From the IMG/VR virus record IMGVR_UViG_3300045988_130745: a DNA stretch of 64,000 nt; one strand, given 5' to 3'. Shown here in pieces: positions 3,558-62,697 of the stretch (position 1 is the stretch's first letter; every line of letters begins with the position of its first letter). The translations under genes were made by a program, and so were the position numbers. The stretch is from a virus. The notes under the pieces are model-generated. The model saw only the letters and a list, made by a program, of their open reading frames with translations, was not told the origin of the DNA and ran no database searches.

Positions 3558-3633
3558 TGACCTTTCAGATAATGGTTAGTCTAGGTGGCTCTAACCCACC
3601 ATGTCTCGGTTCGATTCCAGAGAAGGTCAGCCA
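3558..3633 (+). tRNA. amber-suppressor tRNA (anticodon CUA) with tRNA-Gln-like identity features
   Basis: Anticodon stem ggtgg/ccacc with loop CTCTAAC. Acceptor tgacctt/aaggtca gives U1-A72 and G73, as in bacterial tRNA-Gln. T loop TTCGATT, with a bulged A in the T stem. CCA encoded. Confidence 0.8.
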
Positions 3634-4606: not shown

Positions 4607-5974
4607 ATGCCGCACAGATTTAAAACATACCAAGAAGAAGTTGCGGAAGCTTTACTTCCTGTTGATTTAGTTACAAAAGGAGATTATTATTTAGGAGCTT
4701 GCCGTGAAGTAACATTTTAGATTACTAATGCCTGTAATTTAAGATGTGATTATTGCTACGAATGTAATAAAAGTTCAGAGAATATGTCTCTTGAAACTGG
4801 CAAGAAAATTTGTGATTTAATTTTAAAAGAAATAGATAAGCCAGAAGGATTTTTAGGACGAAAAACTTTAAGAGGTTTAATTCTTGAATTCATTGGTGGT
4901 GAGCCTTTGCTTTGCCCAGATTTAATTGATGGAATTATGTCTTATTTTCTGCCGCGCTTATATATAATTCGCCCTGAACTTGTTCCTTTTGTGAGAATTA
5001 GCTTAACAACTAATGGACAAAATTATTTTGATTCAAAAGTACAGAAATTTTTGAAAAAATATGAAAGCATTATTAGTCTAACTGTTTCTATTGATGGAAT
5101 AAAGGAATTACATGACGCTCATAGAGTCACAATCGACGGTAAAGGCTCTTTTGATAAGGCTATCGCAGCTTTTGAAGACGCAAAAGCACGGGGATGGAGC
5201 TATAGCAAAATGACTTTTGTTCCTCAAAGTTTTCCTTATATTGCGGATTCAATTAAATTTTTAATCAGTGAAAGTATCCAAGATATTTTTTGTAATTATG
5301 CTTATGAACCTTATTATAATCAAAAGGACGCTAAAGAATTTTATTATCAAATGAAAGAAGTAAGTGATTATTTATTTGATAATAATTTAAAAGACATTTA
5401 TATTTCTTGTCTTGATATGCTTGCGGATGGTAAAAGCTCTATGGAGGGAAATTATTGCGGTGGCACTGGTAATATGCTTTCTTTTGATATGAAAGGTAGA
5501 ACTTTTCCTTGCCTACGCTATCATCCCACCTGTCTTGGAGAAGAACTTTCAAGTACCGTTTAGCTCGGAGATTACAATGGTCTTTATCAAACTGAAGCGC
5601 AATGTAAGGCAAGAGATTGTTTAAATTGTATTACTTATAAATCTCAATCAGAACAAAAATGTATTGATTGTCCTGTTAGTTCTAATTGTGGCTGGTGCAG
5701 TGCGAATAATTTGCAAATGACTGGTTCAATTAATAAACGAGTAACTAATATTTGCTGGGCACATAAAGGAAGAGTTTTAGCTGGGTATTATTATTCTGCC
5801 AAACGTTATTTATTATGGCATGATTTTCGTCCTATGAAAATTTGTTTACCAGACGAAGATGCACTTCAAATTATTTCTCAATCTGAGTGGGATGGATTAA
5901 AAGCATTGGTAAATGAAGCAATTACTGTCTTCGAGAAAGAAAAAGACCCTCTACTTATTTCTTAGGAGGGATGA
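4607..5974 (+). CDS. radical SAM / SPASM-domain maturase A1 (anaerobic sulfatase-maturase-like)
   Basis: VTF[TAG]ITNACNLRCDYCYE gives the CxxxCxxC motif. GGEPLL is present. C-terminal CIDCPVSSNCGWC is SPASM-like. Track fragments 4784-5563 and 5711-5965 join in frame through TAG codons. TGA at 5972-5974. Confidence 0.8.
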
Positions 5975-7221: not shown

Positions 7222-7540
7222 AAGAGTTTTTTAGCTAAGTGAAAAAGATAGAATTGAATTGATAAATTTAAACCATAGTATTTAGTCATATGAATAGTTT
7301 ATAGCTTTTATTACTAAATAGTTCTATTCAGACACTTGTGTTATTGAGCATAGCGTTTTAAAAGATTGGCTAATTAATTATTCCGAATAGCTGATTGCTT
7401 GGATAGAATAGAGAAATAGATTATGGGAGTCTATTAATGCTCAATTTGAATATAATATTTTGACGATTCCGAAGATTAAAAATATTTCTTATTCTATTGA
7501 TGCAGAGAAAGGAGTAATTATTTATTGTTATGAAAATTGA
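7211..7540 (+). CDS. hypothetical protein (cluster A)
   Basis: ATG 7211. 110-codon frame is open only with TAG as sense. TGA 7538-7540. Overlaps both neighbours. Confidence 0.4.
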
Positions 7541-8810
7541 AAAACGCTTTGGAGCGATGGCTAATTCTGCTTCTATTGTTTTTTAGATTACGGAATCTTG
7601 TAATTTAAATTGCTCTTATTGCTACTAGCATTTTAAAAGTCCTCGGACATTAGATTTAAATACTGCAATAAAAGAATGTCAAGAAATAATTCGGCTTCTT
7701 GAACAAGAAAATGGAATTTTAGGTAAAAATAATGTAAAAGAATTGACTATTTCTTTTATTGGCGGCGAACCATTTCTTTATCCAGAAATAATGGATATGA
7801 TAATTTAGATGTTAATGTCAGGTATCTCTATTGTAAGACCGGATTTATTACCTTTCATAAGACTTTCATTAAATACCAATGGTACACTTTTATAGAGAGA
7901 AGATGTAAAAAAATTTATTCTTAAACATGAAGATATATTAAATATTGCTCTTTCTCTTGATGGTATTAAAGAATTGCATGATAAAAATAGAATTAACCAA
8001 AAAGGAGAAGGAAGTTTTGACAAGGCTTTTAAAAATGGTTTATGGCTAAAAAAGCATGGCCTAGACCATATTAAAATGACTTTTTCAAAAGAAGATATTA
8101 ATTATATAGCTCCCTCTTTAAAATTTTTTCTTGAAAATGGTTTTAAACATATTGTCAGTACACCTATTTACGAAGACATTTATACCAAAAAAGATGCCCA
8201 ATAGGTTTATAAACAATGTAAAGAAATTGGGCAATACGTAATTAGCAATAAAATTTGGGATGAAAGAATTAGTATTCTCAACGAATACCCCGGATAGATT
8301 CTTGATTTTTCTAATTACCCTTGTGAAATTTTCGGAGATTCATTTTGTTTTTCAGTTGATGGGAAAGCATATCCATGTTGTCGTTTTGCTTCAACTTCTT
8401 TAAATAATAATTGTATAAATTATTCAATAGGAGATTGTGAGAAAGGGATTTTTAATTCAAATGATACCCTTTCGCGCGAAGAATTGAAAAAAATGACAGT
8501 CAATACTTGGATTGATAATGAATGTTTGAATTGTCCAATTTCTGGTGGCTGTGGTTGGTGTCCTGCTTATTGCGCGGAATTAGGGCAATTTGGAAAACGC
8601 ACCAAAGGTAACTGTTGGTTTCATCGTGCAAAAATTTTAGCGCTTTATAATTATAAGAATTAGCGTTCGATTATTTTAGGAGACTGTCAACCAGAGCCTA
8701 TAAAAATTCCAGAAGAAATTGCTCTTAAAATTATATCCCAAGAAGAATATGATACTTTAAAAGAGCAATATAGAAAAGCAAAAATTGCGTAGGCTTCGCG
8801 CAATAAATAA
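7530..8810 (+). CDS. radical SAM / SPASM-domain maturase A2 (paralog of A1)
   Basis: IVF[TAG]ITESCNLNCSYCY[TAG] carries TAG at the same position as in A1. GGEPFL is present. CLNCPISGGCGWCPAYC is SPASM-like. 427 codons to the TAA at 8808-8810. Confidence 0.8.
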
Positions 8811-10481: not shown

Positions 10482-11972
10482 ATGAATAAGTTTGTAAATG
10501 CTATTTCCAATGAGGCTTCTCTTAATGGTTCTGCGAAGTTGACCGAGAATGGTGCAATTGCTCGCTCTACCACTGGGGATTGTCTGCTTGATTTTTATGC
10601 GGTTTCTGGTGCGTTGCGTACTCGCAGTGAAGCTGATATTTTGAGTCTCTTTAAGAAGGCTTGGAATGAGAATCCTCTGTATGCGCTGAAGACTGTGTTT
10701 ATGACTCGTGATATTCGCGGTGGACGTGGAGAGCGTCGTACTGCTCGTATCATTCTGAAGTATCTGGCAGATGTCGCGCCGCAGACTGTTATCAAGAACT
10801 TTGATAATATCATGGAGATGGGTCGTGCTGATGACTTTTATGAGTTCGTTGGCACTTCTGTCGAATCTGCTATGTGGCAGTATTTGCGTAATCAGATTGT
10901 TGAAGACTTGAAGAATATGCGTGCGGAGAAGCCTATTTCTTTGACCGCAAAGTGGCTGAAGTCTATTAACACTTCTTCTAAGGAGTCTCGTGCGCTTGGT
11001 CGTAAGACTGCTCGTGCGCTTGGCCTGACCGAACGTGAATATCGTAAGACTCTTTCTCGGCTGCGTAATTACCTCAAGGTTGTTGAGGTAAAGATGTCTG
11101 CTGGCGAGTGGACCGATATTGATTATGCTGCGGTGCCTGCTGTAGCGATGAATCGTTATCGTAAGGCTTTTAAGCGTCATAATCCTTCTGCTTTCGATAC
11201 TTATATCGAAAAGGTCGAAAAGGGTGAAGAGAAGATTAATGCTTCTACTTTGTATCCTTATGACCTGGTAGAAAAGATTATGCAGAACAATAGCTACTGG
11301 TCTACTGATGTTAAGGAAGACCCCGTTATTGAAGCTCAGTGGAAGGCTTTGCCCAACTACATTGAGGGTGAGAATAACGTGCTGGTTATGGCTGACGTAA
11401 GTGGTTCTATGTATGGTCGTCCTATGGCTACTTCTGTTGGCTTGGCAATTTATTTTGCCGAGCGCAATAAGGGTGCTTTTAAGAACACTTACATGACCTT
11501 TACTAACTGTCCTCATTATATCCAGATTCAGCCTGGTCAGACTCTGGCGGAAAAGGTTGAAGCCGTGATGCGTACTGATGTCGGTTATAGCACTAATTTG
11601 GAGCGTGCATTTATGCAGGTTCTGGATACTGCCGTGATGAATCGTGTACCTCAGAAGGATATGCCTAAGGCAATGGTGGTTATTTCCGACATGGAAATTG
11701 ATCGCTACTTCCGTGGACAGGGACTTGATTTCGTGTCTGAGATGGTCCGTCGTTTCCGCGCGGCTGGCTATCAGATGCCTCGTCTGGTTCTTTGGAACGT
11801 ACAGGCTCGTTCCAACACTTTCCACGCCAACTCTACTAATCCTTATGTTACTTTTGCGAGTGGGCAGGGTGTTGCGGAGTTTAAGAATGTGTTGGCCGGC
11901 ATTTCTCTTGACGCTTATGCAGCAATGATGAAGGCTTTGGATGACGAGCGTTATGCTTCTGTTGTCCTGTAA
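10482..11972 (+). CDS. DUF2828-like protein with C-terminal vWA domain (TROVE/Ro60-like architecture)
   Basis: 496 aa. N-terminal helical region contains NPLYALKTVFMTRDIRGGRGERR. C-terminal MADVSGSM fits a DxSxS MIDAS motif. No TAG. Clearly higher GC than its neighbours. Confidence 0.7.
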   Translation: MNKFVNAISNEASLNGSAKLTENGAIARSTTGDCLLDFYAVSGALRTRSEADILSLFKKAWNENPLYALKTVFMTRDIRGGRGERRTARIILKYLADVAPQTVIKNFDNIMEMGRADDFYEFVGTSVESAMWQYLRNQIVEDLKNMRAEKPISLTAKWLKSINTSSKESRALGRKTARALGLTEREYRKTLSRLRNYLKVVEVKMSAGEWTDIDYAAVPAVAMNRYRKAFKRHNPSAFDTYIEKVEKGEEKINASTLYPYDLVEKIMQNNSYWSTDVKEDPVIEAQWKALPNYIEGENNVLVMADVSGSMYGRPMATSVGLAIYFAERNKGAFKNTYMTFTNCPHYIQIQPGQTLAEKVEAVMRTDVGYSTNLERAFMQVLDTAVMNRVPQKDMPKAMVVISDMEIDRYFRGQGLDFVSEMVRRFRAAGYQMPRLVLWNVQARSNTFHANSTNPYVTFASGQGVAEFKNVLAGISLDAYAAMMKALDDERYASVVL

Positions 11973-12632: not shown

Positions 12633-12708
12633 CGGGGATTAGCGCAGTTGGTAGCGTACTTGATTTGGGATCAAGGGGTCGCGAGTTCGAGTCTCGCATC
12701 TTCGACCA
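12633..12708 (+). tRNA. tRNA-Pro (UGG)
   Basis: Anticodon stem cttga/tcaag with loop TTTGGGA, T loop TTCGAGT, CCA encoded. Confidence 0.85.
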
Positions 12709-17858: not shown

Positions 17859-18989
17859 ATGGAATTAAGTATTGAACAGCAAATGGCTGTGGAAACCAAT
17901 GCTGAAAAAGTCCTGGTTATTAGCTGTGCGGGAGCAGGTAAAACCCGTACTCTAACTGAACGCGCGAAGTATTTGCTTCTTAATGGAGTAAAACCATCAG
18001 AGCTTATTCTTATTACATATACAAATAACGCTGCGCAGGAAATGAAAGATCGTTTATCTGATTGTCCTGGCTTTGATAAGGTGTCTATTGGTACAATCCA
18101 TAGTTATGCTGCGCAATTACTTTCGATGAACAAAATTGGATTGGATAATATTCTTGAACGCGCGCGCGAAGATGACGATTTTGATAGCCTTTTCCGCGAA
18201 GTGAAAAAGCATCTGAATACGATGTTTATTCCCACTATTGACCATCTGCTCATTGACGAGTTCCAAGACGTAGCTCCGCAAGAATATGAGTTCATTAAAA
18301 CAATTTTAAAGCCAAAACATTTTTTCGCCGTTGGTGACCCGCGTCAGATGATTTATTCTTTTAAGGGCAGTTCAAAAGAAGTATTCAATAGCCTATACAA
18401 TGATCCGCAAACAAAGATTTTTGAGCTGACTGAAAATTATCGTTCTCGTTCTGGCATTCTCAAAGTTGCACAACAAGCTATTCGAGATCTTGATGAAGCT
18501 GCGATTACAGATGTTGTTCCGATGAAGCGAGGAATGGCAGAAGTTACTTCTATGGCTTTTGATATTCCTGCAGTCGCATATATGCTTAAAGAACGTGGCG
18601 ATTATAAGGACTGGTTTGTTCTTGCGCGTTCAAATAAACTTGTCGCAGAAATTGCGGCAGAATTTGACGCATTAGGTGTTCCTTATGTCAATTTTCGCCA
18701 AGCAGAAAAAACGACTGAGGAAATCCATCAATTGATGAATGAGAATGTTGTTAAATTACTTACCATCCACTCTGCTAAAGGACTTGAATCTAAGAATGTT
18801 GTTCTGTTTGAGAATTTCTTAGGTAACAATCGTTATTCTCAGGAAGCAAGAGACGAGGAACGTCGTATCCGTTATGTCGGTATCACTCGTGCGGAAGATA
18901 AACTTGTACTTGTCAAGCAAAAGCGAGCAGGTCGTGCGAGGATGCAAAGACCTACAAATTTTAATTATGCTCGAGGTTTTGGATTTTGA
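17859..18989 (+). CDS. UvrD/PcrA-like superfamily-1 helicase (short form)
   Basis: Walker A CAGAGKTRT, DEFQD, GDPRQMIY and VGITRA motifs. Confidence 0.8.
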   Translation: MELSIEQQMAVETNAEKVLVISCAGAGKTRTLTERAKYLLLNGVKPSELILITYTNNAAQEMKDRLSDCPGFDKVSIGTIHSYAAQLLSMNKIGLDNILERAREDDDFDSLFREVKKHLNTMFIPTIDHLLIDEFQDVAPQEYEFIKTILKPKHFFAVGDPRQMIYSFKGSSKEVFNSLYNDPQTKIFELTENYRSRSGILKVAQQAIRDLDEAAITDVVPMKRGMAEVTSMAFDIPAVAYMLKERGDYKDWFVLARSNKLVAEIAAEFDALGVPYVNFRQAEKTTEEIHQLMNENVVKLLTIHSAKGLESKNVVLFENFLGNNRYSQEARDEERRIRYVGITRAEDKLVLVKQKRAGRARMQRPTNFNYARGFGF

Positions 18990-29694: not shown

Positions 29695-30633
29695 ATGGCT
29701 ATTCAAATGAAACGCCAAGGTGGAGGGGTATCGAATAATGCAACTGCGATTATTCCTACTGCTCTTGCTTATGGCGAAATTGGCATTGATAGTGCGGGTA
29801 ATATTTATTGCGGCAATGGTAAAACTCAAGTTACCTCACAAGTTAAAAATGCCGCTAATGTTCTTTTTTTATATAAAGGGACCTATAAGAAAAACGGGTG
29901 GATTGAGAATAGCGTAAATAGTACTTGGTCTTAGACAGTTACAATTACCGCTCAAGATGGTGGTCCTGCAATTAAAGCAGATTTTACATTGTCTGCGCCC
30001 ATGGCTGCGTAGACGGACAACCGTGAAACTAATGAGCAACGTCAAGATGCTCTTAGCGTAATTGCTGCAGGCAAATGTACTCCAAATGATAGCGGTCAAA
30101 TCACTTGTTTGGTTTTTGAAAAACCATCAATAGACCTTGATGTTTATTGGTATGCGCGATTGTCTGGCGGTTACGATTCAATGGTAGATGCACAAGGGGT
30201 CGGTTCTATTGTTGATTCTGCTGTAAATAAAGCAATAGATGATTTAAAATCAAATATTTCTTCTATTGTTGATAATGCAATTAATAGTAGTAATGTATAT
30301 ACTAAAATCAATGGTGTTTGTGCAGTTTATCGCGCGAAGTATTTAGCTTCAGGTTGGATGGCAGTATCTTCCGATGGTTATAATTACTATCAAGAGGTAA
30401 CTACTTCTAAGGTATCTGATGGTAGCGCCAATTTGAATGCGTCAAGTATATTCTTGACTCCTGGCTTCTTCTTACCGAGTGGCACAGCATCAACTGATGC
30501 AGCTTATGCACAAGCAATGGGTATTATCAATGATGGTTATTCAACAAGTGGTACAAATAGAATTATGACCTATACTACAGCTAAACCAATTAGCGATATA
30601 TGGGTTTATTGGGTGGTTAGAGAAGCGGTATGA
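29695..30633 (+). CDS. tail-module protein
   Basis: Track ORFs 29695-29934 and 30109-30633 are in frame and join through two TAG codons. Confidence 0.55.
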
Positions 30634-31202
30634 TTTATGATGAATTAACTGGTGAAGTAATTGAGAATCCAGACCTTACAAAAGGCAAAGTTTATACTGA
30701 AGAAAAAGTTATTGGACGCAAAGAAGCTCAACGGGTTCTTCTTGAAGGTAGTATAACTGACTTTGACCCAGAGGGCTGTTGGATGGAGATACCAGCCGAA
30801 GATATAACTGAGACTGTTGAAAAGTATCACAAATATACCATCGACGAATTGATTGCATAGCAGCAAGCCGCGATTAAGCCAAATGATACTTCAATTTCTC
30901 AAGAAAAAAAACTTGAGCTGTTGCTTAATGCTATACCCACTGCCGCTTATCCAACCGAATCACCTAAGGTAGGCTATAAATGGTCTCCAATGTATAATAA
31001 TGAAGCGGGATTTGGTTGGGAAATGGTAGCTGATCCAGACGCTTTTGGCACTCAAGAAAGACCTTTATATTGGAAAGAAGGTATGGAGGTTAAAGCTGGA
31101 TACTATTATACAGATAAAAGTGAACGGCTGATGCTTGCTGTTGAGAATGGAGTGCCTGATTATTTTGGTTAGTACACTTTTATGGAAGAAATGACTAGTT
31201 AA
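30630..31202 (+). CDS. tail-module protein
   Basis: Track ORFs 30630-30860 and 30921-31172 are in frame and join through TAG. TAA at 31200-31202. Confidence 0.5.
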
Positions 31203-31215
31203 GAGGTATAAGTTT

Positions 31216-31335
31216 ATGGGTACTTTATCTAGGGGGGGGGCTACAATGCCCTTACCTCGTTGTGTACATTTGGAAACGAACGGCTTAATCATTAGTTTGA
31301 CTTTTCTTTCTATTGATGGTATAATAAAATAGTAA
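31216..31335 (+). CDS. short ORF with a G9 tract after a conserved MG-x-L-S-R start
   Basis: MGTLSRGGG... shares its start with the two poly-C genes downstream. May be a remnant or a leader. Confidence 0.3.
31232..31240 (+). repeat. homopolymer G9
   Basis: Read directly from the sequence. Confidence 0.9.
31297..31325 (+). promoter_or_regulatory. family-like promoter
   Basis: TTGACT 31297-31302, 17-nt spacer, TGGTATAAT. Confidence 0.6.
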
Positions 31336-31357
31336 TTAAATATTGAGGGAGATAGTT

Positions 31358-31757
31358 ATGGGTAATATTCCAAGAACTACCCCCCCCCCCCGATACATCA
31401 TTAAGTCTATCGGGAGTGGCGGCAGATTCTAAAATAGTTGGCGATTAGATTTCAAATTTAACATCATCTTTAGATACTAAATTTTTTTCATCTGAAATTC
31501 CTGCTAATTCGACTTTAACCTAGTCGTTTGACAAATTACGTTATGGACATGGGCAATGCGGTTCTGTTTATCTGTCTGCATCAAATGGCGTGCCGGCTTC
31601 ATGGTATTGGTATATTTACATACCTCATCGAGATGGTGGCAATGTTAGTGGCAGCGATAATATGCAATATGGTGTTTTAATCTTAATTGATTTTTGGTCA
31701 AATGCTTTTTATATCGCACGTTATACAAATGGCACAATTAATGTCCGTTCAATTTAA
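31358..31757 (+). CDS. tail-module protein interrupted by a C12 tract (out of frame as sequenced)
   Basis: ATG 31358 gives MGNIPRTT then the poly-C tract. The long downstream frame (DTSLSLSGVAADSKIVGD... to the TAA at 31755-31757) is in another phase. C11 or C14 would fuse the two. Confidence 0.5.
31380..31391 (+). repeat. homopolymer C12
   Basis: Read directly from the sequence. Confidence 0.9.
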
Positions 31758-31776
31758 ATATTAAGGAGAAATTTTT

Positions 31777-32327
31777 ATGGGGAGTATTCCTAGAGCTAAT
31801 ACCCCCCCCCCGTAATAGATAAAACTCTATCGGTGGAGGGTGCAGTAGCAGAAAGTAAAGCGGTTGGTGACAAATTTAATTCAACAATTTTATCTTCGCC
31901 GTTATATAAATCAAAATTTGTTACCGGCTTAGGAATTTACAATTACAATTTTGGCCAACTTGCGACTAATGTAATTACAAAATATCAAGATGGTTCTTTT
32001 CTTGTTGAAATTACATTTGTAGGACATTAGCATAGCATTAGCTCAAATTCAGCTTTTGATTGGCTAAGCGGCAATGGCTTAACAGAAGACGCAAAAAGTC
32101 TAACTGGTAAAAGCAATTATAAACCAACAGCTAATTGTTTCCCCCTATTGGGCAAAGGAGTAATTCCTGCCGAAGAAGGATATAGTCCTTATGTTAGATT
32201 AACTGGAATTAATGGACATCTAAGAGTTGGACGTATTTATGAAGCAACTGCCAATCTAGGTGATTACCAGAACTCTGTATAGCACACTGGTAATTATAGT
32301 TTTAGAATTACTTTAATTCTTTATTAA
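31777..32327 (+). CDS. paralogous tail-module protein interrupted by a C10 tract (out of frame as sequenced)
   Basis: ATG 31777 gives MGSIPRAN then the poly-C tract. The downstream frame (VIDKTLSVEGAVAESKAVGD... to the TAA at 32325-32327) needs C8 or C11 to fuse. Confidence 0.5.
31802..31811 (+). repeat. homopolymer C10
   Basis: Read directly from the sequence. Confidence 0.9.
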
Positions 32328-32348
32328 TTATATAAAATTCTTAATGTT

Positions 32349-32380
32349 AGTGCTCTCCATATTGGAGGGCACTTTTATTT
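32349..32380 (+). terminator. intrinsic terminator
   Basis: Stem agtgctctcc/ggagggcact followed by a T-rich run. Confidence 0.65.
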
Positions 32381-32412
32381 TAGAACAAAATTTTTTATAG
32401 GAGGAAATCGCA

Positions 32413-34770
32413 ATGGATATACTCCTTTTCGGAACTCTCCGAAAATATATCGACGATACTCTTCAAGGCATGGGTGCGCTCAAAGGCGAAAAAGGCGATC
32501 GTGGAGAAAAAGGTGCCCAAGGTCCAAAAGGCGATAAAGGCGACAAGGGAGACAAAGGCGCACAAGGACTTCGCGGTATTCAAGGCTTAACTGGTGCCAC
32601 TGGCGCGAAAGGCGAACGTGGCGCTCAAGGTATCCAAGGTTTAACCGGCCCCCAAGGTATCCCTGGCGTGCAAGGCATCCAAGGTCCAAAAGGCGAGAAA
32701 GGTGACAAAGGTGAAACCGGTCCCGTTGGTAAACGCGGTGTCCCTGGAGTTAATTACAACATTAAATACTTCTTGTCTACTCTTAATGAATTAAATGCCA
32801 TCACTCCTGTTACCGGTTATGACGAAGCTATTTTCGCTTATGTTGCTGAGAATAAATCAATCTATTATTCTTATGAAAGTTCTCCTTGGGCTTTCTTTGC
32901 AGATGCGTCTAATCTTTAGTTTGCGCGCGGAGAGCAAGGTGAGCAAGGTCCTCAAGGTGAGAAAGGTGATAAAGGTGACCAAGGCATTCAAGGCATCCAA
33001 GGACCGCAAGGTATCCAAGGGCCTCAAGGTCTTCAGGGCATCCAAGGAGGTAAAGGAGATAAAGGCGACAAAGGCGACAAAGGCGACCCTCTCACTTGGA
33101 ATGAAGTTCCAGCAGCTGCGCGCAAAGAACTTAAAGGTGAGAAAGGCGACAAAGGCGACACTGGTGATTCTGGTGTTTATTATGGTCCAACTGAGCCAGA
33201 AATTGACCAAGAAAAACTCGTTTGGATTGATTCATCAGTAGAAGAATCGGCTACCACAATTGATATTGCCAACATTCCTGGACTTCAAAAAGAACTTGAT
33301 TCTAAAGTTCAACTCCCAGCCAAAATTGAAAATGATACTCAATTATTTCCCGTTGTAACTTCAAAAGGTACGTCATGGGTCACTCTTGAAGAAACTGTCA
33401 ACGGAATTGTTAGTGAATGTGTAAATATCATCGTGCGTGGCACAGACAATGCGACTCTTAAAGGCACTGAAATTTATCTTCACGATGTAACAACTGACAC
33501 TATATCTACTTTTGAATGGAATGGAACCAGTTTGACTATTTATGTTTTAAATGGACACAAATATTTTATCAGTGGCGCTGAAGTTGAAGGATATGAGCCT
33601 GCCGCGGATAGTTTACAATATATTGCGCGAGCTGCATAGACTCGTACAATCACTTTATCTTATCCGCGCTCAGAAGAAGCAGAATATGGCATCCGATTTT
33701 TAATTGAATCATCAGATCCATCATGTGAGCGTGTAGTAGTCAAAAATAATATTACAACTTATGGCGAAGATACGGGTTTGGTGGCTGCTATTGGTACCAA
33801 ACTCACTATGCCTAAAAACAGTTTTGACGACATCTATCCTTGGTCAGATATTCGCATTGTAACTGATTCTGATAATGCTGCCGAGGCTGCGCAAACGATG
33901 GTTAAAATTCCAAAATATTATGTCAAGGTCACTGTTGATGATACCTATGAAACTTGGATGATTAGTCGTTATAAAAAAGCAGGATACCGTGTCGCAAAAA
34001 TGTTTGCTCGTCCTGATGGAACCGAAGCAGACTATTATGAATATGCCCGTTACGAGACCAGTGACACTAATCGTTCTCAAACTGGCGTCACTCCTCAAAG
34101 TTCAACCACTATTGAAGCATTTAGAACTGCCGCTCTTGGATTAGGTGATAATTGGCATCCAGCTGGACTTGCAGATCGAACTGATGGACTTCAGATGCTA
34201 ATGACTATTGAATTTGCTACTCGCAACATTCAGTCAATAGCAGAAGGTTTGGTTAATTCTAAAACCGTTTCTGATTGCGGTTTGACCGATGGTTTAACTA
34301 TTACCGAAGATTCAAAGGGCATTAAGCCTTATTCTGGTATTGTTAAAAATGCTTTTTCTTATCGTGGAATTGAAAACCCTTACGGTAATTTACTTGAATA
34401 TGCTGATGGTATTATTTTAAACAATTCTCGTGTGTACTATTGCGACGATTGGACTCGTTGGAGTAATTCAATCAATTCAAGTTACGTTCAAGCCGTTGGT
34501 ACTATTCCAACTTTAAGCGGATTTATTACTAAATTGAATTATAATGAAGCTAATCCTTGGATGCGTTTGCCTAGCGAAGTAGTCACTACTGGCGATAGCG
34601 ATAGTAATTATGGCGACTATTATAATGCTCCAACCGCAGATTATACCTTGCCAGTTTATGGCGGTGGTTATTCTACCAATTTGCGTGCGGGCTTATTCCA
34701 CTGGAATTGTACTCGTACTTTTAATGAAACAAATAGAGACATTGGTTCTCGTTTGGCTCGTAGTTTTTAA
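32413..34770 (+). CDS. collagen-like (GXY repeat) tail fibre protein
   Basis: Track ORFs 32413-32919, 33433-33639 and 33778-34770 are in frame (786 codons) and join through TAG. Two GXY blocks ([19 protein letters not shown]...). Confidence 0.75.
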
Positions 34771-34782
34771 GAGGTGATTGAA

Positions 34783-35106
34783 ATGAGAATATCAAAAGCA
34801 ACAAGCGAAATTCGCCCTCAAGATATTATTGAGCAATTATCAGCTAATCGTTTTTCTTGTCGCATTTGCGCGGACATTATTGAAACTGATAATGGTTTTG
34901 ATTTCACTAGCTATCGTGATTCATTTAGCGCATCTTCTTATCCAGAATTACTTGTGAATATTATTCACACTCGTTATACCTATGACGATGAAAACAATTT
35001 TATCAATGATTATATCGCAGAAGGCATGACTAAAAAATATCAAGACTACCGCGATTTTGTTGCTTGGGCTAAATCCCAAGCAAAATCTTATTTTAAGGAG
35101 GACTAA
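34783..35106 (+). CDS. hypothetical protein (possible fibre accessory)
   Basis: ATG at 34783 with an AAGAGG SD. Confidence 0.5.
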   Translation: MRISKATSEIRPQDIIEQLSANRFSCRICADIIETDNGFDFTSYRDSFSASSYPELLVNIIHTRYTYDDENNFINDYIAEGMTKKYQDYRDFVAWAKSQAKSYFKED

Positions 35107-37143: not shown

Positions 37144-37461
37144 ATGGACATAATTACACTTGCGTTGACTCGTAAGGCAGTTAGAGATGCTCACGTTGAC
37201 CATATAGGACCACAAGGACCGGTTGGACCGAAAGGTGAGAAAGGCGATAAAGGTGACCCATTTACTTGGAACGATCTCACTGCGGAGCAAAAGAAAGAAT
37301 TAACTGGTCCAAAAGGTGATAAAGGCGATACAGGTGGAGTTGGCTATGTCTCTTTTGAGAGTGGCAACGATGGACACTTGTACGCCGTTATTGCCGAAGG
37401 GACTGATGAAATCAGTTTCAGAATTTCCGATGATGGTAAGCTGGAGGTAATCTACGCATGA
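37144..37461 (+). CDS. small collagen-like protein
   Basis: 105 aa with [17 protein letters not shown] and [10 protein letters not shown] blocks. Confidence 0.6.
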
Positions 37462-39881
37462 GTAAAAGAATAGATTTAGGCGCAGTAACCGCTTACGCCA
37501 TTGCAGTTAAAAATGGATTTGAAGGCACAGAAGTAGCCTGGCTTGCAAGTCTTAAAGGTGCAAAGGGCGACAGGGGTGAAAAAGGCGAGCAAGGCGCGCC
37601 AGGTATTTAGGGAGAAAGAGGAGCAACTGGTGAAACTGGCCCTATTGGCCCTCAAGGTATCCAAGGACCAAGAGGTGCTCAAGGTGAGAAAGGAGATACT
37701 GGCAATGTCGGCCCAGCTGGTCCTCAAGGACTAAAAGGCGAAACTGGTGCAGTTGGACCAGCTGGGCCGCAAGGTAAGCAAGGCATCCAAGGTGAAAAAG
37801 GTGAAACTGGTGCTGCAGGCGCCCGAGGTGAACAAGGTCCGCAAGGTATTCAAGGCATTCAAGGTCCAAAAGGCGAGAAAGGCGATCCTTTCAGTATAAA
37901 GAAAATTTATGTTTCTGTTGCTGCAATGAATGCTGATTTTGACGGTACTGATACTTCTACTGGTGATTTTGTTCTTATTAACACTGGCAATGTTGCAGAT
38001 GAAGATAATGCAAAGCTCTATGTAAAAGGCGAGAGTGCTTTTACTTTTGTCACTGATTTGTCCGGCGCGGCTGGTATACAAGGTCCGCAAGGTCCTCAAG
38101 GAGTGCAGGGTGTTCAAGGAGAACAAGGTATTCCGGGTGTAAAGGGTGACAAAGGTGATCCAGGCTCTGATGCAACTGTCACTACTGATAATATCACCTC
38201 TGCTCTTGGCTATACTCCCGCAGATTCAACCAAAGTTTACACTAAAACTGAAGTTGACGGAATGATTGATGGTGTTTATGCTCAAGCCGTTCGCAATGCG
38301 ACTTCTGTTGCTCAAGTCAACGGCTTGTTCCAAGAGTGGTGGAAGAAAAATTGGGTTGAAGATACCTCCACCCACACTCAAATGCTTGAGCGTTGGTTTG
38401 GAAATGTTCTTACCAGTAGCAAGGTTTATGGTACCAAGCTACCTTTGTTTGCTACTTCAAATAGTGCAAATGGCGAGTATATTGACGATTCTGTTGGCAT
38501 GACTTGCACTCCTTCAACTAACGCAGTTCTTGGTCAAGATGACTTCGCATTCAAGCCAGAGTTCTGGTGCATCGAAGCATCTGGTGAGCATAATTCTGAC
38601 GGTTCAATTACTATCTATGCTGTTGAATTAATTGATGACATTGCTACCGTTCGTTCTGGCGAGCATTTGACTTGGGTTCTTCAAAAGAATACTTATTGGC
38701 ATGAATATACCAGTGAAGGTTATCATTTCGTCGAACTCAAATCAACTCCTGATGAAACTTGGCATCGTTGGCCGCAAGGTACATCAAAAGATGGTACAGT
38801 TCATGAGTTTATTGCTAACCCGAAGTATTATGCCGGAATGAAAGATGGAACTATTACTGTTGGCACTAATCTTCCTGCAATTAATTTTACTTCTCATCAA
38901 TCTGGCGTTGCTCTATGGCGCAAGCGTGGCAGTCAATACTCTGGCGCGAGTGGCAACCTTATCAAGTTCCTTGATATTATGATGAAGTTAAAGTATGCTA
39001 AGAAAGGTAACTCTGGGACTATTGAAGGTTGTTCAAACTATAACTGGCAATATACTACTCCTGTTGGCGAGACAGGCGTAGAACGTATTATTGTTACTAC
39101 CGCGCAGGGTGCAAATATTAAAGTTGGCTCAACTGTTATTATTGGTAAGAAAGGCGGCTCTACCGATCGTGGCGATAGTGCTATGAGAAGCCTTGTTTCA
39201 ATGAAGAAAGTCAAAAGTTTGGAGCCAGTCACTATTGATGATACTTCTTATACAGCCGTTAATATTGATAATGGCGGAACAACTTTTGATACAGTTGCGA
39301 GTGAGACAATGATTTCTTCTATGCCTTATCACTCTGGATACAATGACAACGTATTAGGTTATGATGGCAGTGCAACTAATTACACCAATGGTTCTGAACC
39401 TGGTTTGCTCCAGAAGATTGAGTTCCAGAATGGTGCTTATCTGATTATTTCAGATGAATTGTGGCAATGGAGCAAAGATGATACAAACTATATGTTTGAT
39501 TGCTATACTTGCCATGATTAGTCAAAAGTTACTACTAATGGAACAATTTCTTCTGACTATACAAAGCAAGCTGATTTGACTTTGAAGTGGGCAGTTGAGG
39601 GTGCTAATACAAGTTGGCACTGGGAATATATTGAAGATACTGCAATCGCTAATGATCCAGCAGTTTGCTGGCCAGCTAAAGTATCCACGACAGCTGGTAG
39701 CGGAACTGGTTGTAAAGCTGGCTTCGGCGTCGCTTTGGCGTCGTCTGGTGTGCGTGCTGGTTGGTGTTTCTGCGGTTTGTGGGGTGGCGGTCTTTGTGGT
39801 GTTTCAGCTCGTAACTCGGACGTTTCTCCTTCGTATTCTGGCTGGTACGGGGCGCTCGGCGGTCCAGGTCTTGCGGGGTGA
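37458..39881 (+). CDS. collagen-like tail fibre protein carrying the DGR variable region at its C-terminus
   Basis: ATGA overlap start. 807 codons in one frame, joining track ORFs 37926-39521 and 39576-39881 through TAG. GXY blocks are present. The last roughly 55 codons are the VR. Confidence 0.8.
39719..39865 (+). repeat. DGR variable repeat (VR)
   Basis: 147 nt align without gaps to 40222-40368. All 19 mismatches I counted sit at adenines of the other copy. Confidence 0.85.
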
Positions 39882-39920
39882 ATCGAAGCCTAGGAGCACG
39901 AAGTGCGGATAGGCAAGAGA

Positions 39921-39936
39921 GGGGACGCAAGTCCCC
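39921..39936 (+). promoter_or_regulatory. GC hairpin downstream of VR (candidate DGR target-recognition hairpin)
   Basis: ggggac-GCAA-gtcccc, a 6-bp stem with a GNRA-type loop, about 55 nt after the VR end. Confidence 0.45.
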
Positions 39937-40221
39937 GTTATAATGGAAACGACCCATCCGTGCGATACGCCCGACTGTTGACTCGATCTCAATTGAATGC
40001 AGCAATAGCATGATTTAATTGAACCATTAACTTTCAAGTCTTGTTTCATACGAAACCGAGATAGATTCAATGACTTTACCGCCATTCAAGAATCTATATA
40101 ACCTAGAATAAAATTCCAAGGATACGATTCAAAGTTTAGGGAAGGATTTCTCTACTACAAAATCCTCCATTCAGTTCTTTCGGCGCTTAACGAAAGTAGG
40201 GACGTATTCCGTTGGCAGATT

Positions 40222-40368
40222 TGGCTTCAACGTCAATTTGGCGTCGTCTGGTGTGCGTGCTGGTTGGTGTTTCTACAATTTGTAGAATGGCGGTAATTGT
40301 GGTGTTTCAGCTCGTAACTCGAACAATTCTCCTTCGAATTCTAACTGGAACGGGGCGCTCGGCGGTCC
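40222..40368 (+). repeat. DGR template repeat (TR)
   Basis: Adenine-rich copy with many AAC/AAT triplets. Invariant GC-rich end GGGGCGCTCGGCGGTCC is shared with VR (IMH-like). Confidence 0.85.
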
Positions 40369-40566
40369 TAGCCGGTCTTGCTTGCGGAGCAGTTTTACAA
40401 CAATAATGCGGATTACGTTCCTAGACTTATTTAGTTGAAATTGCTCCTGCGTAGTCAAGACCGGCTTATTTTTTTATTCAGAAAAGAATAAGCTTAACCG
40501 CGTCTAGTAGCTTCGGCGAAAGTCGCACGGGGAGACCGGCCAAAGGACTAATAAGGAGGGCTACTT

Positions 40567-41874
40567 ATAAAGACTTTTTGTAAGCCCGCAAATACTAATA
40601 TATGCGATCCAGAGTTTATTTACTGGGCGGTTTATGATTGTGTTAAGCATAAACTTTATCGTAATGATTTTCTTGATTTATTATGTACTCAAACAGGTAT
40701 ATCTCGCCGCGTAGTGATAAAGGAGCGTTCACAATTAAATGAATCAACTCCTATGATTGACGGCGCAATCAAGAAATTATCTGAAAAATGCGCTCAAATG
40801 ATTGCTGATAACAAACTTAAATTTAGAGAACTTCGTCAATTCAATCGAGTTGATGGTATTTCTGGAAAGAAAAGAGATATTTGTCAAGAATCTCCTCTCC
40901 AGCAAGTATTTGAATACATCGCGGTTTACGCACTTCAACCACTTTTTGATGCTAAAATTTTATATTGCCAATTTGGCAGTATCCCAGGTAAGGGACAAGT
41001 CAAGGGCGCGCAAAGAATTTCATATATTCTCAATAGTCCAAAGTTCAAAGACAAACGAGTGGACTGTATTAAATGTGACGTCCGCAAGGCTTATCCATCA
41101 ACAAAAGTAAGCACTGTTCATAATCTTATCACTAAATATTGCGGTAAGAATAAATAGTTAATTGGTTTAGTTGATGCTATCATGGCAAACTACCCTAATC
41201 ACCATTTAATTATTGGTGGCTACTTTTCCACTTGGACATTTAATTTAGTAATGAGTGAAGTTTTGCGTGAGTTTAATAAACTTTATAAAGAGCGCCGTGG
41301 ACAGCGAATTAAACTGGTCGAAAAAATTGTTTGCTATGCAGATGATTTTCTCTTGTTTGGATACAAGTCCAATTTGGAGCGTGCGATTAAGACAGTTGCT
41401 AAACGTATTAAAGCACAATTTGGTTTAGAAATCAAAAATGTCTGGACGATAATTCAATTCCCATCTAAAGAGGTTGAAAACCATCCTCGCTATAAAAATA
41501 CTTTTATTGATATGATGGGTTTCAGAATTTATCGCCATTACCGTGGCATCCGCAAGAAAATTTTTCGCAGAGCGCGTAGACAATTTATCCGTGCAAATCA
41601 ACTCTCTTATGTACCTGTTTGGAGAGCGCGAAAAGTTGCGGCATATAATAGCTGGCTTACATATTCTAAAAGTCGTGGAGTAATCCTCAATTATCATATA
41701 AATACCCTAATGAATCGTTCGAAGCAATCCATATCTAATCATTCTAGGGAGGAATTGACAAGTTATGAAAGAGACTTATTGCTCTATCCCGAAAGCTGTT
41801 TTGACTTTCCCCGTTGGCGGAAAAACCGACGTTATTTTGAGGAAAAATATCGAAAAAGTCACCAAACAGGGTAA
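40567..41874 (+). CDS. DGR reverse transcriptase
   Basis: YADDFLLFG gives the YxDD motif, and IPGKGQVKG is present. Track ORFs 40714-41157 and 41182-41874 are in frame and join through one TAG. The frame is open from 40555, just after AAGGAGG. No canonical start exists before the GTG at 40714, so the 5' end is uncertain. Confidence 0.75.
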
Positions 41875-55311: not shown

Positions 55312-55848
55312 ATGGCTTGGACTTAGGGTGGGGCAATAGGAGCTTCTGAAGTTAATAATTGGTATACTAGTCTTAATAAAACTATTGGAAGTTATGGCGG
55401 TGGAATTGCATAGCTATCTAATCCTATAAGAGCGGGAAGAGACGTATATGCTTCTGATTTAAATAATTTAATAACTAAATTAAACGAATTAAAAAGAGAC
55501 GAATATTTAAGCTAGGCAAGTTATGGTAGTTATAGCTCAGTTTCTGTTGGATAGATTATTCGCGCATCAGATTGGACTGGAATAAATTCAAGTATTTCTA
55601 GTTTGACTGGTGTAAAATGTCGGAATAGAGCTACTTATACAAATGGCGCATCTACAACTACTAATGGTAATGGAGTATGTCGGCAAGGCTATGATAGTAA
55701 TGGAACAGATTAGAATGGCGGAATGTGGGCGAATACTTGCACGAACGGTTGGTATGATAATTCTTCAAATTCTCATGGCACAAATAGCGCTAGTCCAAAT
55801 CGTAATGGCAGTAGGGTAGATATATGGTGTCAAAATAGCACGGGGTAA
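55312..55848 (+). CDS. Gly/Ser/Asn-rich protein with C-terminal Cys residues (candidate substrate of cluster B)
   Basis: 178 aa, with six in-frame TAG, so invisible in the ORF track. GASEVNNWYTSL and IRASDWTGINSSI echo EASDWNNLADAY of the protein at 5978-6625. C-terminal region has 5 Cys among N/G/S/T. Confidence 0.6.
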
Positions 55849-55850
55849 AA

Positions 55851-57197
55851 ATGAATAAAAAAGATACTGCAATTTTTTATAGCTGCGGAATTTGTAATTT
55901 AAATTGCAATTATTGCTGTATAGATAAAAATCCAATTTTGAAAGAGATAGATAAAGAATTAGGAGAAAGTTTTTAGGGAGACTATTATTTTAATCAAGTA
56001 AAAAAATATTTCCCATTACCAGGTTCTCTTCGCCAAATTGAAACTTGGGGAGGCGAACCATTTTTAAAAATGGAACGAATGCATAATTTAATTCGTCAAT
56101 TATGCGATTATTATTTTTATTTTAATAGTTTTTATAGTTCTACAAATTTCTCATTTCCTCAATGGGCAGATAAAGTTTTAGATCTATTGAAGGTTTTTGG
56201 GGAATTTTCTCCGCGTCGCTTTACGATACATTTACAGCTTTCTATTGACGGACCAGAATATATTAATGACAGAAATAGAGGCATTGGGACTACTCAAAAA
56301 TGTTTAAATAATTTTAATATTTTGATTTCTCGTTTGCCAAATGAGTTGCCTAAAAATATAAATTTGATAATTACAACTAAAGAAACTTTAGATAATTCTT
56401 CTATTATGGCTTTAGATTCTAAAAATAAAGTCATAGAATATTATCAATTTATTGAAAATAATTTTATTAGAAAAATAGATTTACTTAATTTGGACAATGT
56501 TAAAATAGAATTTTGTATTCCTAATACAGCAGATCCTTCTCCAGTTACAAAAGAAATAGGAAAGCATTTTGCAAATATCTGTAAATGGTGCAGAGAAATA
56601 GAACAAGAAAATGAAAAATATGGCTATTTTAGATATTATAAATCAATTACTCCTTTTTCTTAGAATGTTGACAATTTAAAATTGTCTTATAATTATCCAA
56701 ATTACACTTGCGGGACTGGTTATAATATGATTGGATTTTTACCGAATAATATGATTGCTAGTTGTCATGAAAGTTTTGTTTACTTAATTGAAAAATATAA
56801 AGATTTTGCAAAAGAATAGATGTCAACTGAAGTAGATAAAACCATTAATTTTAATAATTTTATTTCTAATTGTAATGCTTGTAAAATGTGTATGTCCGAG
56901 AAAAATTTCCCTGAGCATGAAAGATGTATGTCGTATTATAATCAATCTAATACGATGTTTAGATTAGCAAATATTACAAATGAAATTATGTGTTTAGCAT
57001 TGGCAAAACAAATAGATCCTAAATATGCTGAAGAAGAAAAAGCTCTTTCTGCGGCGATTTATCTTCAATCCGCTACCGCTTACTGTATAAAAAATAATTA
57101 TGAAATGACAGGAAGCTATAGTTTAGTTTCAGATGGGATATTAAAATTATTATTTAACGGAGCAGCAGATATTATTGAGGGAATAAATGATGTATAA
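55851..57197 (+). CDS. radical SAM enzyme B1
   Basis: YSCGICNLNCNYCC gives the CxxxCxxC motif and WGGEPFL is present. Track ORFs 56070-56663 and 56820-57197 are in frame (449 codons) and join through TAG. Confidence 0.75.
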
Positions 57198-58606
57198 CGC
57201 AATAACAAACAAAAGAATATATCAAGAAGAGCAAAATGAATTATTATATAATCTTTTGTAGAAAAGATTTTTTCAATTCTGGGAAAAACCTGAACTTTTC
57301 CAAGATAATACTTCTTTGAGTAATAATTCTAATATAGAACTATTTATTACTCCATATTGTAACCAATCTTGTTCTTATTGTTATTTAGTTAAATATCCAG
57401 AATTATATCCTAAAGGAATTTCGAATGATAAAATTTTAGAAAATTTAAAAATTTTTTTAAATTGGATTAACGAAAAAAATTTTTATCTTCCCGATATTGA
57501 TTTATTTTCTGGAGAAATTTGGCATACAAAATTAGGTTTTGATATTTTAGATATAATTTTAGATTATTGTAAAAATAATAAATTAAAAATTAAGCAATTA
57601 ATGATTCCAACAAATGGAACGTTTTTAAAATCAGATGAAACTTTTTATAAAATGCAAAATTTTATAGATGATTTTAAAGAAATAGGCGTTCGGCTTTGTA
57701 TTTCTTTATCAATTGATGGAGCAATTATAGAAAATAAAACACGTCCTTTGAATAATAAAGAATTAAAAACAGATTCTTTTTATGAGAGAGCTTTTGCATT
57801 TGCTAAATATAATAATTTTGCCTTTCATCCAATGATAAGTGCGGTTTCTGTAAAAGACTGGGTGGAAAATTATAAATGGTGGAAATCAGAATGTAAAAAA
57901 TATGATTTGAATATTTATGATTTAATGATGCTAGAAGTGAGAAATAGTGATTGGACAGAAGAATCAATTCAAGATTATAATCATTTTTTAAATTTTTTAT
58001 TACAAGATTTTTTATCTGATTGTAAATCTGTTGATGAAGCAGTTCAATGTCTATTCAATTTAAGTCCTTCTATAAAAAAATCAATAAATTTAAACAATAA
58101 TAATTATTTACCCTATGCTATTACTAAAAGTAATACATATCCTGCTTGTACTATTGCCACACACCTCTGTGTAAGGTTAGGAGATTTAGCTATTTCTCCA
58201 TGCCATAGAGCTGGATATGAAAAAAAATATTTATGGATATTTTCAAATTGAAAACAATAGAATTGTTGGTATAAAAGCGAATAACCCTTATATGGCAATG
58301 AGAATTTTATTTGGTAATAATACTATTTGTTCTCCAAAATGTGACACTTGCGATTTTAATAAAGTTTGTTTACAAGGCTGTTTTGGCGCGCAAATGGAAT
58401 ATAATCAAGATCCTTTTATGCCAATCCCCGAAGTATGCACTTTCTTTAAAAGTAAATATATTAATCTTGTAAGACAATATAAAAAATTAGGGATTTTAAA
58501 TGCTTTAGAAAAATATCATTCTTTAGAATGCATCCAATATCCTATGGCACATTTTGTTTTAAATTTTTGCAATGGAGTGCTAGATAAATATGGCATGGAA
58601 TCTTGA
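57187..58606 (+). CDS. radical SAM / SPASM enzyme B2, split by a frameshift in an A8 run
   Basis: ELFITPYCNQSCSYCY gives the CxxxCxxC motif. The C-terminal CDTCDFNKVCLQGC (SPASM-like) lies in track ORF 58217-58606, in the next frame. Removing one A at 58220-58227 fuses ...SPCHRAGYEK to NIYGYFQIENN... Confidence 0.65.
58220..58227 (+). repeat. homopolymer A8 at the B2 frameshift site
   Basis: Read directly from the sequence. Confidence 0.9.
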
Positions 58607-58886
58607 CACTATTTTTAATTTAGGTCCTATATTTTCTTTAGAATATGGCAATATTACTAAAGAAGATTTTGTAAATTAGGATATTAAAAGTATGTCTTTT
58701 GATTGTTGTACTCTTGAAAGACAAATGCTAGGAAGTATCGAACGGACTTTTATAAAAGAGGATGGCACAGTTAAAAGGGAAAAGGTTTATAATCTCTATC
58801 CAGAAGGAGCATTAAAGCAATCTTCAAGGTGCCTGAACGCATTTGGGGAAACCGTTTTTAATTGGGAGAATAAAAATGAATTTTAA
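58590..58886 (+). CDS. hypothetical small protein of cluster B
   Basis: ATG at 58590. One TAG joins it to track ORF 58692-58886. 98 aa. Confidence 0.4.
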
Positions 58887-62620: not shown

Positions 62621-62697
62621 ACGGTTGTAGCTTAATAGGATAAAGCTGCGTGATTCCTAATCCGTCTATACCAGTTCAAATCTGGTCAGCCGTTCCA
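62621..62697 (+). tRNA. tRNA, probably Arg (CCU), with a bulge in the anticodon stem
   Basis: Acceptor acggttg/cagccgt, loop TTCCTAA if one stem nucleotide is bulged, T loop TTCAAAT, CCA encoded. Close relative of the Arg(UCU) gene. Confidence 0.55.

Follow-up and report, generated by a model that had tools for sequence, protein, structure and literature searches.

G:C homopolymer tracts of variable length in small fibre-tip genes of a human-gut phage: a probable contingency locus

Poly-G or poly-C tracts near the 5' end of genes for surface structures form contingency loci in Campylobacter, Neisseria and Haemophilus. In phages, alternative or diversified fibre tips are generated by the invertible G/C segments of Mu and P1 and by the retroelement of Bordetella phage BPP-1. 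To our knowledge, Fletchervirus is the only group of phages in which experiments have addressed the switching of receptor-binding genes by homopolymers. In these Campylobacter phages, polyG tracts of 7-11 nucleotides (nt) in receptor-binding genes create subpopulations (Sorensen et al. 2021, as summarised in PMC12633550; cited in PMC12823448). Contingency loci are also described in T2 and T4, where repeats of at least 6 nt in agt, rIIA and other genes undergo polymerase-slippage frameshifts and act against host defence; in coliphage tail-fibre genes, repeats of at least 6 nt are under-represented (0.77x) (Gomez, Barrick & Waters 2025, PMC12633550). The present analysis concerns positions 31216-32327 of a 64,000-nt stretch (hereafter the window) of virus record IMGVR_UViG_3300045988_130745, where small genes, probably for tail-fibre tips, carry a long G or C tract just after the start codon.

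As far as the summary describes Fletchervirus, the two systems have in common G:C homopolymers in phage receptor-binding or tail genes, shifts of frame by tract length and a likely role in bet-hedging against variable host surfaces. The resemblance is one of mechanism only, as the poly-C gene products matched none of 50,697 GenBank phage records (tblastn, E≤0.01). Unlike Fletchervirus, the present phage is uncultured and known from sequence alone; it comes from the human gut, measures about 175-183 kb, is predicted to read TAG as Gln and has a host for which Bacillota is weakly suggested. Its tracts are both poly-C and poly-G on the coding strand, and lie in small stand-alone modular tip genes (130-185 amino acids, aa) in arrays of up to five. 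With bacterial contingency loci it shares the tract just past the start codon, ON/OFF switching by frameshift, polymorphic tracts between conserved flanks, accessory genes of surface interaction and several independent loci that give combinations. Unlike them it is virus-borne, and a new tract length would be packaged in a mostly parental particle, so that the phenotype would appear one infection cycle later. As in T2 and T4, frameshifts by homopolymer slippage would give heterogeneity to the phage population, but the long tracts of the present phage are in fibre-tip genes only. Mu, P1 and BPP-1 reach the same output by site-specific inversion or mutagenic retrohoming, not by repeat slippage.

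The mechanism is thus already known. What is new is its occurrence in an unrelated phage lineage and in unrelated proteins, with up to five switchable genes in a row; no description of this locus was found in the literature searched. Slipped-strand contingency loci switching modular fibre-tip genes are the best explanation of the data, with a probability that we estimate at roughly 0.78.

Tracts and reading frames in the window

The locus comprises the following elements, given in window coordinates. Family A designates cassettes of the Gp10_C type with a poly-G tract, and family B the poly-C genes 2 and 3 and their relatives.

31216-31240, + strand: open reading frame (ORF) 1, ATG at 31216, leader MGTLSR, then G9 (31232-31240); 5' end only of a family-A cassette, with the same leader and tract in related contigs L004 and L005
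31241-31288, + strand: family-A 3' remnant LQCPYLVVYIWKRTA with its stop, out of frame with the ATG at 31216; deletion junction
31358-31379, + strand: gene 2 leader, MGNIPRT(T), with Shine-Dalgarno GAGGGAG at 31345-31351; leader common to 12 related contigs
31380-31391, + strand: gene 2 C12 tract, preceded by MGNIPRTT, OFF in the window
31392-31757, + strand: gene 2 body, fibre-repeat motif (DTSLSLSGVAADSKIVGD), then a head domain of about 95 aa; stop TAA at 31755
31777-31801, + strand: gene 3 leader, MGSIPRAN(T), with Shine-Dalgarno AAGGAG at 31763-31768
31802-31811, + strand: gene 3 C10 tract, preceded by MGSIPRAN, OFF in the window
31812-32327, + strand: gene 3 body, fibre-repeat motif (VIDKTLSVEGAVAESKAVGD), then a head domain of about 150 aa; stop TAA at 32325

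An earlier note on this DNA had reported the three starts and the G9, C12 and C10 tracts, and these are found with exactly the coordinates and sequences it gave. Each ATG is preceded at 6-9 nt by a Shine-Dalgarno sequence (AAGAGG for ORF 1, GAGGGAG for gene 2, AAGGAG for gene 3), and the tracts lie 16-25 nt downstream of the ATG. The frame of the gene 2 body begins at 31392, 34 nt past the ATG, and that of gene 3 at 31812, 35 nt past the ATG. Both long genes are therefore out of phase with their start codons as sequenced, in agreement with the note. The ATG frame ends after 24 codons in gene 2 (MGNIPRTTPPPRYIIKSIGSGGRF, then a stop) and after 12 codons in gene 3 (MGSIPRANTPPP, then a stop). 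For both genes, a tract of 8, 11 or 14 C puts the body in frame with the ATG (ON). The suggestion that a small change in the number of C would turn each gene on is borne out by the existence of such alleles in relatives. ON alleles encode products of 131-183 aa, and OFF alleles 12-39 aa from the ATG. With TAG read as Gln, the junction peptides of in-frame tip products would include GSIPRANTPPPVIDK and GNIPRTTPPPDTSLSLSGVAADSK.

The tracts are not due to chance, which the earlier note had judged unlikely. Nowhere else in the 64 kb does a run of G or C exceed 5 nt. C runs of 4 nt occur 18 times and of 5 nt twice, followed directly by those of 10 and 12; G runs of 4 nt occur 53 times and of 5 nt twice, followed by that of 9. 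The numbers expected with independent bases are 0.036 for G runs of at least 9, 4e-4 for C runs of at least 10 and 1e-5 for C runs of at least 12. In the long ORFs of the window, CCC makes up 7.9% of the Pro codons and GGG 6.1% of the Gly codons. As these are the rarest codons for each residue, the tracts are no by-product of Pro or Gly coding.

The note had counted ORF 1 as the first of three tandem ORFs of one kind, which did not hold: it is the leftover of a Gp10_C-type tip gene. In L004 and L005, MGTLSR and G9 head a full-length, in-frame Gp10_C protein of 153-162 aa. The remnant consists of the last 15 codons of another gene of this type, and its final 11 residues are identical to the C-terminus MPPYLVVYIWKRTA of a third family-A gene, with which the series of Gp10_C genes ends in L005 and L012. 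Full-length family-A relatives match Pfam PF21939 (Gp10_C) with 52-78 bits (cut-off 27), the L004/L005 form with 52 bits, and the family also matches tail-fibre PHROGs. Its closest homologues in cultured phages are the C-termini of 'antireceptors' of Lactobacillus delbrueckii phages (42-46% identity). ORF 1 of the window itself, reduced to the leader and the last 15 codons, has no Pfam match and is classified as a remnant, not as a Gp10_C member. A third gene paralogous to genes 2 and 3 was considered for ORF 1 and rejected in favour of a deletion remnant of a different protein family. The window has thus lost its family-A cassettes by deletion, leaving leader, tract and tail.

Tract lengths and ON/OFF states in near-identical genomes

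Related genomes were retrieved through a tract-independent neighbour, the 107-aa product encoded at 34783-35103. The ten contigs returned by this look-up come from different samples and share 99.6-99.99% identity with the window over 9.3 kb. L015 and L032 were added from two other look-ups, giving 12 contigs with 99.6-100% identity to the window. The tracts are listed below for each genome, in the order G tract, gene 2, gene 3.

Window: G9; C12; C10
L020: G10; C8 (ON); C10
L021: G9; C10; C5TC2 (ON)
L022: G9; C12; C11 (ON)
L023: G9; C12; C8 (ON)
L024: G10; C10; C5TC2 (ON)
L025: G8; C9; C11 (ON)
L026: G9; C12; C8 (ON)
L027: G10; C8 (ON); C10
L028: G9; gene 2 deleted; C13
L029: G6; C6; C11 (ON)
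L015: G10; C13; C11 (ON)
L032: G9; C7TC3 (ON); C10

The tracts range from G6 to G10 in the remnant, from C6 to C13 in gene 2 and from C8 to C13 in gene 3. The comparison of related genomes had been proposed in the earlier note as a check, and it supports slipped-strand phase variation of two alternative fibre-tip proteins: tract length differs from that of the window in 23 of 35 comparisons across the 12 contigs, by up to 6 nt, while the flanks stay near-identical, and ON and OFF alleles of both genes are found. Outside the tracts, 102.8 kb of alignment contain 117 substitutions and only 2 sites of insertion or deletion. Two control runs, A8 (30904-30911) and T7 (31482), are invariant in all near-identical contigs. 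Over 9.3 kb, L022 and L023 match the window throughout, save for the length of the gene 3 tract. Likewise, the differences between ERR636409 and ERR636410 are confined to the tracts. Other samples that carry the phage include SAMEA2784508, ERR13612645 and ERR11504327. Compared with their flanks, the tracts are hypermutable. As even the poly-G of the dead remnant varies, the source of the length differences is mutation and not selection.

The ON tracts of gene 2 are C8 and C7TC3, and its OFF tracts C6, C9, C10, C12 and C13. In gene 3, C8 and C11 are ON, C10 and C13 are OFF, and a further ON tract in relatives is CCCGTCCCCC. Three marks of a contingency locus are thus found, namely a homopolymer early in the coding region that is long enough to be unstable (about 7 or more G/C), length polymorphism between conserved flanks and ON/OFF toggling of identical bodies, and the toggled genes are intact. 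Protein P0016, which occurs on 7 contigs, is exactly the product of gene 3 repaired to C11, and P0053 is 100% identical to the product of gene 2 repaired to C11. In-frame alleles form series 3 nt apart: TPP (P0051), TPPP (P0008) and TPPPP (P0052); TTPP (P0060), TTPPP (P0053) and TTPPPP (P0054). Interrupted tracts (TPSP, YPSP, C7TC3) are also on record and should lock the gene ON.

Purifying selection acts on the gene bodies. The ratio of nonsynonymous to synonymous substitution rates (dN/dS) is 0.15-0.23 for the body of gene 2, from alleles that are OFF (window, L012) and ON (L005), and 0.05-0.30 for that of gene 3, a figure underlain by few differences. The tracts themselves are conserved at the nucleotide level.

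The following mechanism is proposed. The locus would be a row of small tail-fibre tip genes that are translated separately. In each, a Shine-Dalgarno sequence and an ATG are followed by 5-8 leader codons, by a G:C tract encoding Gly-Gly or two to four Pro, by one copy of a widespread fibre motif or the N-terminus of Gp10_C, and by a variable head. The tracts would gain or lose bases by slipped-strand mispairing as the phage DNA replicates, and each change of length would shift the head into or out of the frame of the ATG. If switching is fast and reversible within a lineage, the phage population would carry heritable, reversible ON/OFF combinations of alternative tips. Provided that the tips are located on the virion and bind receptors, such a contingency locus would most likely hedge host recognition.

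The earlier note had placed transcriptional or translational slippage beside slipped-strand phase variation. In such a programmed decoding, slippage of RNA polymerase, or +1/-1 ribosomal slippage of tRNA-Pro on the C run, would restore the frame and give a set level of expression whatever the length of the DNA tract. On a run of CCC codons, peptidyl-tRNA-Pro can re-pair in any frame, and runs of proline stall ribosomes, which would favour this mechanism, as would the phage's own tRNA-Pro(UGG) (12633-12708). Programmed sites, however, hold a fixed sequence and offset, whereas here both length and offset vary among near-identical genomes and many alleles are in frame. A programmed frameshift or transcriptional slippage site was examined as a candidate and rejected: tract length goes from 6 to 14 nt, each of the three offsets is represented and in-frame alleles are frequent. 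No stimulatory element was seen, though no search aimed at one was made. Programmed decoding also leaves the polymorphism unexplained, and is very unlikely to be the mechanism. Of the two proposals, that of slipped strands is retained, and slippage in decoding, for which no fixed programmed site is found, is not needed to account for the data. A minor contribution of decoding slippage is possible, and may add leaky expression from OFF alleles. The conjecture that the poly-G and poly-C tracts pair with each other in an RNA or DNA structure was considered as well, and is not supported.

Artefact, decay and the nature of the tip proteins

Several observations weigh against contingency loci in fibre-tip genes. 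The first concern the material. The evidence consists of assembled contigs, in which any single tract length could be an error of assembly or a stutter of the polymerase chain reaction (PCR), and the contigs were de-duplicated by neighbouring genes, so that the counts of ON and OFF alleles are not population frequencies. Taken to its end, this would mean that all true tracts are in frame and that out-of-frame lengths are homopolymer miscalls. G/C homopolymers of at least 10 nt are indeed error-prone and subject to PCR stutter, and a single C separates the window from L022. Against an artefact, differences of up to 6 nt (C6 versus C12, G6 versus G10) exceed miscalls of plus or minus 1. The same OFF lengths recur in independent assemblies, C10 of gene 3 in the window, L005, L020, L027 and L032, and C12 of gene 2 in the window, L022, L023 and L026. 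In-frame alleles 3 nt apart (C8, C11, C14) exist, and the A8 and T7 runs do not vary. Miscalled homopolymers are therefore a highly improbable source of the pattern.

The second set of observations points to decay. Many cassettes are OFF, and some are plainly decaying. In the window, one cassette is a remnant, both family-B genes are OFF and the family-A genes are deleted. The tracts of the B1 cassettes have shrunk to C4-C6 in L007-L010, and the B1 cassette of L011 has an early stop codon. Gene 2 of L021 and L024 contains a second frameshift, a T5-to-T4 change equivalent to window position 31706, and whole cassettes are deleted in the window, L006 and L028. Part of the variation may thus be neutral decay of dispensable genes and not adaptive switching. 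All of it would be so if the tracts were mutational hot spots in decaying accessory genes, neutral and with no selected switch. This is contradicted by the purifying selection on gene 2 bodies, OFF alleles included, and by OFF bodies that are identical to the ON proteins P0016 and P0053. Pure CCC or GGG runs are retained at the same position in diverged alleles and in two unrelated families, although these codons are the rarest, and 64 kb contain no other G/C run above 5 nt. Neutral decay accounts for some cassettes, but not for purifying selection or the retention of the tracts, and is improbable as the whole explanation.

Two observations concern the course of this decay. The T5-to-T4 change in L021 and L024 is an instance of secondary decay, in a cassette whose tract is also OFF. 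The loss of gene 2 in L006 (10756-11304) and L028 (about 1470-1530) is ascribed to recombination between the leader-tract regions of genes 2 and 3 (31333-31391 and 31754-31812 in window coordinates), the outcome being a hybrid or a single cassette. As the deletions run from leader to leader, the leaders and tracts would also act as direct repeats for cassette loss.

The last set concerns the identity of the family-B proteins. Genes 2 and 3 match nothing in Pfam or PHROGs, and PDB sequence and profile searches of family B gave no match, as did the search of GenBank phage records cited above. AlphaFold2 models of the two proteins, built from shallow alignments, are of low confidence, with mean predicted local distance difference test (pLDDT) scores of 48.8 and 32.4. 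For a related B1 tip, the only match is weak (E = 0.0035) and falls in the C-terminus of a tail-fibre PHROG. The N-terminal motif of the family, xDxTLSxxGxAADxKxVGD, occurs in as many as 11 copies in long fibre-like proteins and matches 1,123 representative clusters at E≤1e-3. A nearly identical leader module of about 35 aa is joined to at least six unrelated C-terminal heads (P0006-P0012, P0073-P0075; L005 12035-12487), and the same head is found behind either leader type, which indicates frequent recombination just past the VGD(K) motif. We read family B as modular mini-fibres, probably composed of a short N-terminal adaptor and a variable head. The context, with collagen-like fibre genes as neighbours of the array, points to a putative role of the tips in receptor binding.

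Array architecture, genetic code and neighbouring elements

The array is anchored by a conserved gene and contains two transcription signals.

30630-31202, + strand: conserved gene of 190 aa directly 5' of the array, synteny anchor; found at 89-95% identity in 8 IMG/VR contigs, each time with the array behind it
31297-31325, + strand: sigma-70-like promoter, TTGACT, 17-nt spacer, TATAAT, with TG upstream of the -10; 11/12 consensus positions
32349-32373, + strand: intrinsic-terminator-like hairpin with an 11-bp stem (6 G-C pairs) and a T run, 3' of gene 3, closing the family-B unit

The locus is common to 8 IMG/VR contigs (111-179 kb) and many ENA/Logan human-gut contigs. Between the 190-aa gene, which belongs to no Pfam family, and a collagen-like fibre gene lie small genes of two kinds, in a variable array. 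In family A, which encodes Gp10_C tips, a leader such as MGTLSR or MASLAR stands before poly-G, and one member lacks the tract; in family B, a leader of the MGxIP... type stands before poly-C. L005 holds six cassettes: G9 ON, G9 OFF, one without a tract, C10 ON, C12 ON and C10 OFF. Three of its five tract-bearing cassettes are thus ON and two OFF. In L033, whose gene 2 homologue is 66% identical in protein, the tracts are G9, G10, C11 (ON) and C9 (OFF) at the same position, some of them behind different leaders.

The promoter at 31297 proposed in the earlier note stands as a sequence match, with the TG of an extended -10, and is kept 5' of the first family-B cassette in L005, L006 and L012. 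It precedes gene 2 and is a candidate promoter of the family-B cassettes. The terminator-like hairpin is kept in L001 and L002. Pattern scans of IMG/VR for a leader followed by poly-C returned this lineage only, plus one likely chance match. Neither megablast of positions 30000-34000 nor tblastn of the neighbouring 613-aa tail protein gave a match among GenBank phages. A scan of representative bacterial and archaeal genomes for relatives of gene 2 found none, and gave no prophage or host clue by that route. The strong Shine-Dalgarno sequences, the type of promoter and the best matches of the helicase and of family A, which are in Bacillota phages, weakly suggest that the host may be a member of the Bacillota.

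For the long frames of genes 2 and 3 to be open, TAG must stand for an amino acid, as it occurs in frame at 31446 and 31521 in gene 2 and at 32028 and 32280 in gene 3. In-frame TAGs are frequent in this part of the window, with for example 6 within one ORF of 753 codons. A suppressor transfer RNA (tRNA) was predicted with ARAGORN among the 28 tRNA genes of the window.

3558-3633, + strand: suppressor tRNA, anticodon CUA, required for the in-frame TAGs of the tip genes

In the upstream gene and in gene 3, TAG in the window aligns with CAA in relatives (compared with L001). Taken together with the CUA tRNA and the in-frame TAGs, this alignment argues for the reading of TAG as Gln, and the phage is predicted to be recoded according to code 15. 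In-frame TAGs are present in many late or structural ORFs and absent from several others (for example 58-1050, 10482-11972 and 17859-18989). The CUA tRNA is not among the Rfam matches at the gathering threshold. For another tRNA, at 62621-62697, ARAGORN gives an irregular call with a two-base anticodon loop ('cc'), and the Rfam tRNA score is 49 bits. Interspersed with tRNA clusters, at 4607-5974, 7530-8810, 55824-57197, 57187-58251 and 58876-60636, are several candidate ORFs with a radical-SAM-like CxxxCxxC motif and one large ORF that is YcaO-like by eye. These could form a set for peptide modification or maturase function.

Among 14 genomes carrying both gene 2 and gene 3, gene 2 is ON in 4, gene 3 in 9, neither in 1 and both in none. 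The absence of the both-ON state has a hypergeometric p of about 0.005 to 0.02, and of about 0.02 in a less biased subset of 11; the 14 genomes are related and not independent, and some were retrieved through ON proteins. Counter to mutual exclusion, two other family-B genes are ON together in L005. The counts suggest selection for one tip at a time, as a lead and not as a result. Tips sharing the adaptor of about 35 aa might compete for one docking site, with the tracts keeping usually one of them ON, and PP, PPP or PPPP could tune a linker. Such a combinatorial tip selection is rather doubtful.

A diversity-generating retroelement lies 7 kb downstream of the array, at 37458-41874.

37458-39881: collagen-like fibre gene, with the variable repeat at its 3' end (39719-39865, 147 nt)
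40222-40368: template repeat, 147 nt
40753-41874: reverse transcriptase ORF with a YADD motif; Pfam RVT_1, 37 bits (cut-off 29.6)

The template copy has A at 19 of the 19 mismatches between the repeats. With these features, the element is assigned to the diversity-generating retroelements, and the phage would combine two mechanisms that diversify fibres. If combinatorial tip selection were true, the phage would have two tiers of host-range variation, with discrete switching of heads and continuous mutagenesis of another fibre.

The same device as in Fletchervirus appears to have arisen independently in a widespread uncultured human-gut phage, with natural ON and OFF alleles across the metagenomes of many people. 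When a fibre gene of a metagenome-assembled phage is frameshifted, it should not be written off as an error or a pseudogene, and existing read sets would constitute a concrete, testable system in which the phase variation of phages could be measured in vivo. More generally, contingency loci may be a common means by which gut phages keep their host range plastic.

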